This document shows, in pieces, positions 26,764 through 29,700 of a DNA stretch of 62,597 bases (positions within the stretch are counted from its first letter, which is position 1; every line of letters starts with the position of its first letter). The notes beneath the pieces are model-generated. The model did no database searches and had not been told where the DNA came from. It was given only the letters and a program-made list of their open reading frames with translations. Source of the DNA: an uncultured Clostridia bacterium (GTDB lineage Bacteria > Bacillota > Clostridia > TANB77 > CAG-508); contig CAUWKC010000005.1 in assembly GCA_963559365.1 (NCBI GenBank), positions 1-62,597 of the forward strand, given 5' to 3'. A program made the position numbers and the translations under genes.

Positions 26764-29700
26764 ATGGAGAAAAAAATGAGATTTAAAAAAATATGTATCA
26801 TTATATTGATAATGGTTACAATTTTATTTACTGCAAATGAAGTGCTTGCAGCAAATGCTCAAACAGAAATAACAACAACAAAACAAGAAATTCAAGCAAA
26901 GGAAGAGGAAACAACAACCCTTAATTTTAAATTAAATAATTTTCAAGAAATTGAAGATGGATTATATGCATATAAAGGACAAATTCAATATGATAAAAAT
27001 GTTTTTTATGAATTAGAAACAAAAGATTTTGAGGTAAAAAATGATTGGACAAATTTGGAATATAACAAGCAAAATAATGAATTTGTTGTAATAAAAAAGT
27101 CTGGAGTGACAAATCCAGAAGAATTTTTGCAAATAAAATTAAAAGTAAAGAATGATGCAAAAGCAGGAAGTTCAAATATAGTGATTAAAAATCAAACAAC
27201 ATCTGAAGGTAAAGATGATATAGAAATTGATAATTTAAGTATGGATATTAAAATTATTCAAGAAGATGATAATAATCCAGGTATAGGAGATAATGATAAC
27301 AATAATTCTGGAGACAGTAATCAAGGAGATAACCAAAACAACAATCAAGATGGAGGAAAACCTTCAATAGAAATACCAAAAACAGGATTAGGAAATTATC
27401 AAACACTTATCTTAATAGCAATTGAAGTACTAATTATAATTGCTATATATTCATTTGTAAAATATAAAAAAATAAATAAAAAGATAAAAATCAAAAACAA
27501 AAAAATGTTAGGAATGATTTTTGCTATAGTACTTACGGCACAAATAGTAGGAACTACCTATGCAGCTGTTACAAATATCGTCCAAAAAGGTGAAGTAAAT
27601 GGAGATGGAGTTATTGACTATACTGATGTAAAATTAGTAGAAAAACATTTAATTGGATTAGAAGAACTAATATCTGATAAATTAAAAAATGCAGATTTAA
27701 ATGAAGATAATAAAATAACAGTTACAGATTTAACACTTTTAATAAAAAAGATAGAAAATAAAAGAGAATATGTAGTGGAACTAGAAAATGTCGTAACTGA
27801 TAATTACTATCCAAATAAAAATCAAGAAATAGAAATATCTTTTATGGGAAAAATAAACTATGAAGATGTATCTATTAAAAAAGTAATAATAAATGATAAA
27901 GAATATGAAGTACAAAAAACAAATGATGAATATAAATTAAAATTAAATGTAGGAGATAGAGCAGAAAAACGAGATTTTAGATTTTCAAAGGTGATGCTTT
28001 CAACAGGTGATGAAGTAAAAATAGATTATAATTTTTCAGTAAGTGTATTAAAGGACAAGCCATTTATAGATGAAAAAACATATAAATTAGAAGAAACTTT
28101 TGAAGGAAAAGCTAATGTTAGCTTTGATTTAATCGATACAGAAAATAGTATCCTTTCTGCAGAGTTTACAGTATATGAAAAAGCAGAATTAGAGGGAGAA
28201 AATATACCAGTAGTAGAAATTCCTATAAAATCAGGAAATAATAAACAGGAAATACCAGTAGAAGATGGAAAAACATATATTGTACAAATAAAAGTAGATT
28301 ATAATTTAGCACCAGAACAATTGCCAGAAAATGAATATCAAGGGGAAAACATTATCTATTCAAAAGAATTTACAGTAAATTTAGATTATAAATTTAAAAT
28401 ATCTGATATAAAAACACTAAAAAATGATATACCAAGCACAATATTTACAAAAGGAGAACAAATTCAGGTTTCTTTTAATAGTACAAATGCGGCATTTGAA
28501 GAAACTAAAAACAATACATTTAAACCAACTATTGTGACAATTAATGGAAAAGAGTATCAAGTAATAGAAAAAGATAATAATTATATTGCTACAATAGATG
28601 GAATAGAATTATTAGGAAATCAAATAATAACAATAGAAAAAGTAAAACTTGGGAATGGAAAAGAATTTACTTTAGATAAAAACAACAATGTACAAATTAG
28701 AATAGAAGAAAAGATACCTAGTATAATTAACTTTGAAGCACAAGAAAATGTAACAGATAGAAATATTAAAATTAAATTTAATATTATAGATGAAGAAAAT
28801 GCTATTAAAAGTGCAAAAATTGTACTTTATGATAGTAAAAAGAATGTAATAGAAAGCAAAGATTTAAGCATAGAAGAAATAAAAAAAGGTATAATAGAAG
28901 CAACATTAAAAACGAAAGAAACAACAAAATATGTAGTACAAGTAATTGCAACTTATAATGTAACAGATGTAGAAGTGGCAGAAAACAAAGTTCTACTGGA
29001 ACAAGACATACCAGCGATTATATATGCTAATATTAAACAAGCAGATATAGATAAAACAGAAGTTGAAAAAAATGAAAAAGTAAATATTATATATACGATT
29101 GAAACAAATAGTGAACAACCTATAGAAAAAATTCGTGTAAATAGTGTAGATTATAAAGCAACAAAATTATCTAATGGGAAATATAAAATTACAGTTCAAA
29201 CTGGAAATTTACCACAATTATTAAATCTTGAAACTACAAGATTGATTTTTAAAGATGAAATAGAAGTAGATGTAACAAATAAATTACAAGTAAATGTATT
29301 AAAAGATGTACCAACAATTAATGATATTAAACAAGAAGACAGTGTTGGGAATCATGAGGTAACATTAAGCTTTACAATAAATGATACAGATAAAAGTTAT
29401 ATTAGTGGAAAAGTACAATTAGTAAAGAATGGCAATGTAGTAGAAGAAAAAGAAATTATAAAGAATGAAAATGGAGTAGGTACAGTTACTTTTGACCATG
29501 TAGAAGAAGGTGTGTCATACACAGCAAAAGTTTTAGTTACATATAACAGATTTGTGGGAGCGGAAGAACATATTCAAAAAGAACAATTATTAGAAGAAAT
29601 ACCAGTTATATTAATACATGATTACAAATTACAAGTAAGTAATTTAAAAACTGCTAATAAAGAAAAAGAAACTATATACTTTAATAAAAATGAAGAAATT

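Follow-up and report, generated by a model that had tools for sequence, protein, structure and literature searches.

M26 zinc metalloproteases are known from streptococci and Gemella as IgA1 protease/ZmpA, ZmpB, ZmpC, and ZmpD, and in IgA1 protease, ZmpB, and ZmpC the sortase motif sits at what looks like the "wrong" end of the protein. In the secretion model proposed for the streptococcal enzymes, a second cleavage site releases the passenger (PMC3518915); the stub between the signal peptide and LPXTG has no named domain, and the passenger starts with repeats or G5 (PMC3518915). Single-cohesin scaffoldins anchored by sortase act as wall-bound receptors for dockerin-bearing proteins (PMC12997984). 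Ruminococcus flavefaciens ScaE (PDB 2zf9) and Limousia cSca5, which consist of a signal peptide, one cohesin, a linker, and a C-terminal LPXTG motif, are examples. Cohesin-dockerin pairs also operate outside cellulosomes, as among the glycoside hydrolases and toxins of C. perfringens, where they assemble host-directed enzymes, not cellulases. The literature on cohesin-dockerin M26 proteins and on LPXTG metalloproteases yielded no description of the architecture reported below, and the nearest published work, on the "mucinolysome" (PMC12997984), does not mention it.

The window, a 62.6-kb stretch of DNA from an uncultured Clostridia bacterium, contains a gene (26764-34863) whose ancestor, judging by sequence, was a giant surface zinc protease of the M26 (IgA1-protease/Zmp) family, about 3,100 aa long. 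In its first 340 residues a signal peptide, a cohesin, a linker, an IPKTG motif, a transmembrane (TM) helix, a Lys-rich loop, a second signal-like helix, and a dockerin follow one another (Table 1). An earlier note on this DNA, made by reading the sequence, had already proposed this series: a signal peptide ending VLA|AN, a cohesin-like domain of ~135 aa, an Asn/Asp linker, IPKTG at residues 204 to 208, a TM helix, a Lys-rich loop, a second helix ending TYA|A, and a duplicated dockerin. All of these elements were recovered, with IPKTG exactly where it had put it. Translation probably begins at the second ATG (26776), since the equivalent Met starts the proteins of relatives and GGAG lies 8 nt upstream. 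Our preferred reading, to which we assign a probability of roughly 0.6, is that a cassette that lets its enzyme be cut free and docked again was fused in front of an M26 passenger, and that the passenger has been crippled in this genome.

Table 1. Features of the cassette gene and of the sortase region in the window
Feature	Position	Strand	Basis or remark
Promoter-like site, TAGAAA / 17 nt / TG-extended TATAAT	26708..26736	+	10/12 matches, consensus match only
Signal peptide 1, residues 1-29, ...EVLA|AN	26764..26850	+	
Cohesin domain, residues 31-165	26854..27258	+	PF00963, AF2, Foldseek
Asn/Asp/Gly-rich linker, residues 166-203	27259..27372	+	Predicted disorder, AF2 pLDDT <50
IPKTG sortase motif, residues 204-208	27373..27387	+	
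TM helix 1 (TM1), residues 214-232, hydrophobic part of sorting signal	27403..27459	+	AF2 helix 212-234
Lys-rich cytoplasmic loop, residues 233-247	27460..27504	+	
TM helix 2 (TM2), internal signal peptide, residues 248-267	27505..27564	+	Predicted signal-peptidase site TYA|A after residue 267
Type-I dockerin, two Ca2+-binding loops, residues 276-335	27589..27768	+	PF00404, PDB dockerins, AF2
Stalk of Ig-like repeat modules, residues 336-1089	27769..30030	+	Internal repeats
Junction of in-frame deletion, ~700 aa (2.1 kb) versus all close relatives	30031..30045	+	TLING/KILNG microhomology
Remnant of M26 catalytic region	30043..31713	+	Peptidase_M26_C match, HExxH comparison
HETGN instead of HETGH, residues 1364-1368	30853..30867	+	
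In-frame TAA stop, codon 1866	32359..32361	+	
Same-frame continuation, 833 codons, M26_N-like and GLUG repeat modules	32362..34863	+	
Small secreted Asn/Thr-rich protein with LPKTG sorting signal, adjoining sortase	42656..43027	+	
Sortase gene in two frames	43050..43683	-	TIGR01076, 58 bits versus cut-off 39
Sortase, TM-bearing N-terminal part	43411-43683	-	ORF
Sortase, catalytic domain, TLVTC	43050-43484	-	ORF

The two binding domains are identified by profile matches, both scoring above the Pfam cut-offs in the HMM comparison that the earlier note had called for. PF00963 matches residues 43 to 162 over profile positions 8 to 137 of 139 (33.9 to 36.5 bits against a cut-off of 24.1; E 4e-8 to 7e-9). 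AF2 modeled the whole domain with pLDDT >90, and the top 18 Foldseek matches of the model are cohesins, led by C. perfringens 2jh2 and 2vo8 (TM 0.77 to 0.84); in this model, the N-terminal domain has the nine-stranded beta-sandwich fold of solved cohesins. Dockerin_1 (PF00404) matches residues 276 to 330 with 43 to 45 bits against a cut-off of 22.9 (E 5e-11 to 9e-12), and comparison with solved type-I dockerins in the PDB gave E values of 3e-6 to 1e-5. Both Ca2+ loops, E277-D288 and D311-D322, are intact, including the invariant residues D281, D288, D311, N313, D315, and D322. The stalk that follows is 77% identical to relative P0003 (residues 1 to 1095) and matches the Big_3_2 and FlgD_ig profiles weakly.

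Between the two domains lie the three parts of a cell wall sorting signal: IPKTG, then T214-V232, then KYKKINKKIKIKNKK. The segment from the signal peptide through the cohesin, linker, IPKTG, and helix to the Lys tail reads as a complete classical sortase substrate. Ten of the 15 residues of the Lys-rich loop are Lys, and this stretch has a double role: it closes the sorting signal as its charged tail and opens the second signal peptide as its n-region. The C-terminal end of that second peptide is GTTYA|A. By the rules of membrane topology, the Lys loop is cytoplasmic, and both the cohesin and the dockerin are extracellular. The features of the Zmp-type N-terminal anchor, as defined after PMC3518915, are all present: the first signal peptide, an N-terminal LPXTG-type motif, two hydrophobic segments, and a predicted second signal-peptidase site. 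The streptococcal precedent named in the earlier note, an N-terminal LPXTG with two TM helices, agrees with the published order of signal peptide, LPXTG, two TM segments, and second peptidase site (PMC3518915).

Farther downstream, the protein departs from what the earlier note expected, which was a metalloprotease with about 2,400 residues beyond the dockerin. The open frame ends at codon 1866. The same-frame continuation after the stop corresponds, by its modules, to the C-terminal third of the ancestral protein. The true M26_N domain of P0003 (residues 1129 to 1369) falls within the stretch that is missing here, and what is left of M26_N in this copy is the C-terminal M26_N-like GLUG repeats. 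Peptidase_M26_C still scores 70.6 bits, with a match that begins only at profile position 105. All relatives examined have HExxH, which in the close relatives reads HETGH, where this copy has HETGN; the change of the second zinc-binding His to Asn would remove one zinc ligand. Because of these three lesions, the deletion, HETGN, and the TAA, the protease of this copy is probably dead, or else the assembly is faulty.

That the lesions stem from faulty assembly, and that the organism really has a whole, working protease of about 3,100 aa, strikes us as unlikely, though several observations lend this view weight. The two point lesions are seen in this assembly only and represent the same kind of base change, and the 2,699 codons of this 25%-GC DNA contain just one stop. 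Among metagenome contigs from related strains, a sense codon occupies the TAA position in all contigs of four public runs, and a His codon occupies the Asn position in all contigs of three of these runs. The sortase gene of the window also shows a single-base insertion. Errors in base calling, however, do not remove 2.1 kb in frame at a microhomology of 5 residues, and the k-mers commonly used in assembly are longer than this shared stretch; no metagenome contig spans the junction among the runs found. The lesions may also be real strain variants, since none of these runs is clearly the source sample (word shares up to 0.37). Unless the lesions are assembly errors, this gene was most likely inactivated not long ago and is now a pseudogene whose anchor cassette is intact.

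A search for the same architecture in relatives, also suggested by the earlier note, found the cassette in the genomes of at least 174 species, from which 80 loci were fetched. The family comprises 30 protein clusters, with 187 representatives at 50% identity (E up to 1e-30). Intact members are 2,500 to 3,700 aa long, with HExxH at about residue 2,040 to 2,150. The linker varies in length; TM1, the charged loop, TM2 with its small-x-small end, and then the dockerin are kept in all 90 distinct junctions examined. At the place of IPKTG, 47 of the 90 relatives have a sorting motif of the form [LIFYVM]Px[TSA]G, 21 have a degenerate IxKT[TNS], and 13 have no motif, the classes being those assigned by a position-free regular expression. 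Because about a third of the family thus lacks a recognizable motif, sortase appears not to be essential to the cassette. The passenger can also differ, as P0031 has the same cassette in front of a DUF4874/DUF4832/BNR protein.

Relatives in which the parts are encoded separately support the preferred reading. Stand-alone homologues of the N-terminal part, 250 to 290 aa long, run from signal peptide through cohesin, linker, LPXTG, and TM helix to KK and terminate exactly after the Lys-rich tail; one of these genes directly follows a gene ending in a dockerin. In a split form found at ten loci, each in its own genome, a cohesin gene adjoins a gene for a signal peptide, dockerin, and M26 protease. 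These dockerin-M26 genes start at the equivalent of the Lys loop, and their ordinary N-terminal signal peptide ends in G-x-I-Y-A| (GVIYA|), sharing the motif G-x-x-Y-A with the end of TM2 here. By this comparison, the first ~270 residues amount to a separate protein joined to the front of the protease. The stand-alone homologues ending after the Lys tail and the match of TM2 to the split-form signal peptides both support a cassette that probably operates by "cut and re-dock," a scheme in which the binding and the two cleavages are predicted.

Under such a scheme, Sec would export the cohesin, TM1 would act as a stop-transfer segment, and TM2 would restart export, now of the passenger. Signal peptidase would cut after Ala267 to free a dockerin-led enzyme, sortase would cut IPKT|G to link the cohesin to peptidoglycan, and the dockerin would then bind the cohesin, so that every enzyme molecule would come with a wall-bound receptor of its own, in a 1:1 ratio. 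In relatives lacking the sorting motif, the cohesin would stay on a membrane hairpin.

A distinctly unlikely variant is that no cutting takes place at all, and that the two helices form a permanent membrane hairpin while the cohesin grips the dockerin of its own chain (in cis) or of a neighbor (in trans), so that the stalk is steadied or clustered at its base. The third of the family with no usable sortase motif does still keep the hairpin, and AF2 models both helices as a continuous one. Against this, TM2 always ends small-x-small and corresponds to what in the split-gene relatives is a genuine N-terminal signal peptide, the Lys tail is where stand-alone cohesin anchors end, and a high-affinity plug-and-socket pair would be redundant in an unbroken chain.

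Model evidence on whether the cohesin and dockerin pair with each other is consistent with re-docking after cleavage. For the window module (alignment of 26 rows), AF2 gave the dockerin pLDDT >90 and a pTM of 0.64, above the value of roughly 0.44 that we estimate for rigid placing of the cohesin alone, with docking judged from pTM alone. When a cohesin-X-dockerin adaptor, whose dockerin is a different one, was folded as a control, pTM was 0.46 and dockerin pLDDT <50; its alignment was less deep, with 10 rows. Covariation between cohesin and dockerin says nothing about pairing because phylogeny dominates the scores (MI-APC, 118 to 130 nonredundant sequences), the top value being 0.30 versus 0.33 for the cohesin and an unrelated downstream module. 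That the two are not partners, the cohesin displaying other dockerin proteins and the protease docking on another scaffoldin within a wider cellulosome- or mucinolysome-like network, is very improbable: gut Firmicutes do have multicomponent cohesin-dockerin systems (PMC12997984), and proteins with C-terminal dockerins plus a cohesin-X-dockerin adaptor occur near the split-form genes, but those dockerins belong to a different sequence class (E 1e-5 to 1e-9 versus 1e-30), custom HMMs find just one cohesin and just one dockerin in the ±10 kb around fused loci (and a single dockerin in the whole window), and the N-terminal dockerin type always accompanies this cohesin type, fused or as a neighboring gene.

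Genes related to the cell wall and to sorting lie in the same window as the proposed cut-and-re-dock cassette. A sortase and a small LPKTG substrate are encoded 10 to 16 kb downstream of the cassette gene; one extra base near 43430 must be skipped to join the catalytic domain of the sortase to its membrane-anchor part. The window also encodes a class A PBP. Relative L030 has an intact sortase gene 4 kb upstream of its cassette gene; L030 and L064 are the only loci with a sortase within 10 kb, and the linkage is not general.

By placing a cohesin on the sorted stub and a dockerin at the head of the enzyme, the cassette family offers an explicit answer to how a released M26 enzyme stays on the cell, and one that can be tested with two small recombinant domains. 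If this answer is true, one gene can supply both halves of a cohesin-dockerin pair in cis and in fixed stoichiometry, and such a self-contained system would be a useful natural model for displaying proteins on Gram-positive hosts. Beyond that, the family brings together many unstudied giant proteases that face the host, from the gut Firmicutes of humans, mice, rabbits, chickens, and ruminants. A caution comes from this copy, as its enzyme part is inactivated in the present assembly. A more general proposal, to which we would give even odds, is that the series of signal peptide, cohesin, optional LPXTG, TM helix, basic loop, TM helix ending AxA, and dockerin is a portable one-gene "cut-and-dock" display device. 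It would have arisen by fusion of a ScaE-like anchor gene to the gene of its client. Processing of its single precursor by signal peptidase and sortase would yield a socket linked to the wall and an enzyme bearing the plug, and these two would reassociate one to one. The same logic may apply to the LPXTG near the N terminus of the IgA1 protease and Zmp enzymes of streptococci, where the sorted stub would be a receptor for the released passenger.

Compared with the streptococcal and Gemella proteases, the family shares a homologous M26 passenger but differs in that its stub is a cohesin and its passenger begins with a dockerin, which would provide an explicit means of reattachment; part of the family has also lost the sorting motif, and this copy has no intact HExxH. 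The N-terminal part has the layout of ScaE and cSca5, as do its stand-alone homologues. Those scaffoldins, however, are separate genes serving many dockerin proteins, whereas here the anchor is fused before a single client, and the charged tail is common to the anchor and the client's signal peptide. Cohesins of C. perfringens, among them that of NagJ (2jh2/2o4e; complex 2ozn), are the closest solved relatives of the cohesin described here by sequence (E 0.08) and fold (TM 0.77 to 0.84), and the likeness extends to a non-cellulosomal use of the pair. In C. perfringens, by contrast, cohesin and dockerin reside on different secreted enzymes, the cohesin provides no wall anchoring, and neither a TM hairpin nor a sortase motif lies between the two. 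The cassette combines two known kinds of system, the N-terminal sorting of Zmp-type proteases and non-cellulosomal cohesin-dockerin anchoring.

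The giant gene, which encodes cohesin, dockerin and an M26-type protease (IgA1-protease/Zmp family) in one frame, sits in a window of 25% G+C behind a promoter-like site with an extended -10. The start Met of its relatives corresponds to its second ATG (26776). Its first 340 residues hold the elements in the order in which the earlier note read them, and profile searches place both cohesin and dockerin above their Pfam cut-offs (see table). With a 26-row family alignment, AF2 folds residues 31-165 and 276-335 at pLDDT >90, leaves the linker disordered and models helices at 212-234 and 239-274. 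In Foldseek the first domain groups with solved cohesins, the closest being the non-cellulosomal Clostridium perfringens 2jh2 and 2vo8 (TM 0.77-0.84); the second matches solved type-I dockerins (E 3e-6 to 1e-5), and in both of its loops the positions that bind Ca2+ do not vary within the family.

Features of the giant gene (residues numbered from 26764), of the rest of the window and of split-form loci; a slash marks a putative cleavage site
Feature	Position	Strand	Evidence or remark
Giant gene frame	26764-34863	+	single interruption, TAA at 32359-32361
Signal peptide		+	N-terminal sequence ...EVLA/AN
Cohesin	residues 43-162		PF00963, 34-36 bits (cut-off 24.1)
Linker	cohesin to IPKTG		Asn/Asp/Gly-rich
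IPKTG	residues 204-208 (27373-27387)	+	sequence
TM1	after IPKTG		19-residue hydrophobic helix
Stretch between TM1 and TM2			KYKKINKKIKIKNKK
TM2			second hydrophobic helix, end GTTYA/A
Type-I dockerin	residues 276-330		PF00404, 43-45 bits (cut-off 22.9)
Small secreted Asn/Thr-rich protein	42656-43027	+	perfect LPKTG sorting signal; convergent with and adjoining sortase
Sortase gene, two frames	43050-43683	-	anchor-bearing 90-aa ORF overlaps catalytic 144-aa ORF
Sortase catalytic domain	43050-43484	-	TLVTC; TIGR01076, 58 bits
Class A PBP	47908-50409		window
Split form, gene 1	L072 10001-10936		example
Split form, gene 2	L072 10982-17122		example
Proteins with C-terminal dockerin of the adaptor's class	L074 2058-3776; L075 3-1607; L078 3330-9476		near split-form genes

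Relatives of the gene support the view, at the level of sequence, that the cassette precursor is really two proteins. Its N-terminal part contains all elements of a classical sorting substrate, and stand-alone homologues of 250-290 aa terminate exactly behind the Lys/Arg tail (e.g., ...IPKTG...IGYQKYKNIK), one of them immediately downstream of a gene whose product has a C-terminal dockerin. Cohesin and protease are adjacent genes in ten loci (L068, L071-L079), where gene 1 encodes a cohesin-X-dockerin adaptor without a TM helix or LPXTG and gene 2 a signal peptide, dockerin and M26 protease. What precedes the dockerin in this second gene is a basic n-region, then a hydrophobic core, then GVIYA/; TM2 in fused proteins therefore corresponds to a genuine signal peptide. 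With their nearby dockerin proteins, split-form loci look like a small cellulosome-like network around the protease.

TM1, a mostly basic loop, TM2, a small-x-small motif and the dockerin are kept in all 90 distinct junctions. The sorting motif varies: [LIFYVM]Px[TSA]G in 47, a degenerate IxKT[TNSKA] in 21, SPxTG or xxTG[DE] in 9, which presumably resemble the SrtB motifs of Clostridioides difficile, and nothing recognizable in 13. Some lineages can therefore do without wall linkage; where the motif is missing, the cohesin would be held by the TM hairpin itself. The proposal that sortase fixes the cohesin while signal peptidase frees a dockerin-led passenger that docks back onto it finds support in comparative genomics.

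The architecture proved widespread when sought in relatives. Searching a word index with residues 1-340 gave 30 clusters, almost all of them 2,800-3,130 aa long with Dockerin_1 and M26_N/M26_C; an exhaustive profile search gave 187 representatives at 50% identity (E up to 1e-30), and among genomes taken one per species, 174 species had the module, chiefly uncultured gut Clostridia, "Clostridium sp. CAG:273," "Bacilli" and "Tenericutes" MAGs and Mediterraneibacter, with Sellimonas caecigallum a cultured carrier. In intact members, HExxH falls near residues 2,040-2,150. One relative (P0031, 1,883 aa) carries the same cassette, cohesin-LPNTG-TM-TM-dockerin, ahead of DUF4874/DUF4832/BNR in place of the protease, so the cassette is portable. 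Some genomes hold two paralogous cassette-bearing giant proteases (L020 and L022 on JAAVXM010000059.1; L027 and L039 in one MAG); one such pair is separated by about 11 kb.

Evidence that the dockerin fits its own cohesin is indirect. AF2 gave the window module a pTM of 0.64; we estimated about 0.44 if the 136-residue cohesin alone were rigidly placed in the 342-residue chain, and the excess matches confident placement of the dockerin against the cohesin. As a control, the split-form adaptor, which belongs to another sequence class and had an alignment of only 10 rows, folded with pTM 0.46 and dockerin pLDDT <50. Conservation in the cohesin is highest at A69, Y70, K71, W95, N101, I110, K112, G114, S147, G149, K150 and D152, which lie on strands 3, 5, 6 and 8, as numbered from AF2 secondary structure, and these strands form the canonical dockerin-binding sheet. 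Cohesin-dockerin covariation yielded no usable signal. Within +-10 kb, our family HMMs found one cohesin and one dockerin at fused loci and additional proteins with C-terminal dockerins at split-form loci.

The protease part did not bear out the metalloprotease and the length of about 2,400 further residues that had been described. Against its nearest relative (P0003, 3,086 aa, 70-77% identity), the window protein lacks residues 1096-1794, which include the genuine Peptidase_M26_N region, with the junction at a short TLING/KILNG microhomology; its zinc motif is HETGN, where all intact relatives have HExxH, and codon 1866 is a stop, the only one among 2,699 codons in strongly AT-rich DNA. Public gut metagenome contigs of close strains part from the window sequence at the deletion junction, and every one of them encodes His where the window sequence encodes Asn (3 runs) and carries a sense codon in place of the TAA (4 runs). 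Since these contigs show none of the three lesions, intact copies exist, and only this assembly carries the lesions. This copy is either a recently inactivated gene, and so a decayed example of its family, or the product of a faulty assembly. The point changes at 30865 and 32360 are the same base-substitution type relative to all related contigs and could reflect damage or an assembly artefact instead of two independent mutations.

The organism makes peptidoglycan, as its class A PBP indicates. The membrane anchor of the window's sortase lies in another frame from the catalytic domain, and joining them requires one base to be skipped near 43430, where the break amounts to one extra C before GG (TTT CGG CAT). 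A relative (L030) has an intact sortase homologue 4 kb upstream of its own giant gene. The LPKTG protein beside the window's sortase weakly matches the EF0750/EF2685 family of sortase-dependent surface proteins. The giant gene is flanked by cotJC (Mn_catalase) and a Sua5/YrdC gene; relatives carry it in other contexts. Between cotJC and the promoter lies a perfect 31-nt inverted repeat with a 7-nt loop (26615-26683), not a canonical terminator because no T-run follows on either strand. A large serine recombinase (24273-25865) directly precedes the CotJC-type catalase (25969-26586), and just downstream of Sua5 a Cu_amine_oxidN1, SH3_3 and GH18 protein (35708-37441) is possibly a glycosidase of the spore cortex or the wall.

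Our literature search found no paper describing Zmp-type N-terminal sorting and cohesin-dockerin anchoring in one polypeptide. Single-cohesin scaffoldins anchored by sortase are already known, as are non-cellulosomal cohesin-dockerin systems. Streptococcal Zmps share with the giant gene a signal peptide, an N-terminal LPXTG-type motif, two hydrophobic segments and a putative second peptidase site, at which the proposed Zmp secretion model releases the passenger (PMC3518915), and loss of sortase A depletes Zmps from the pneumococcal surface proteome (PMC13604702).
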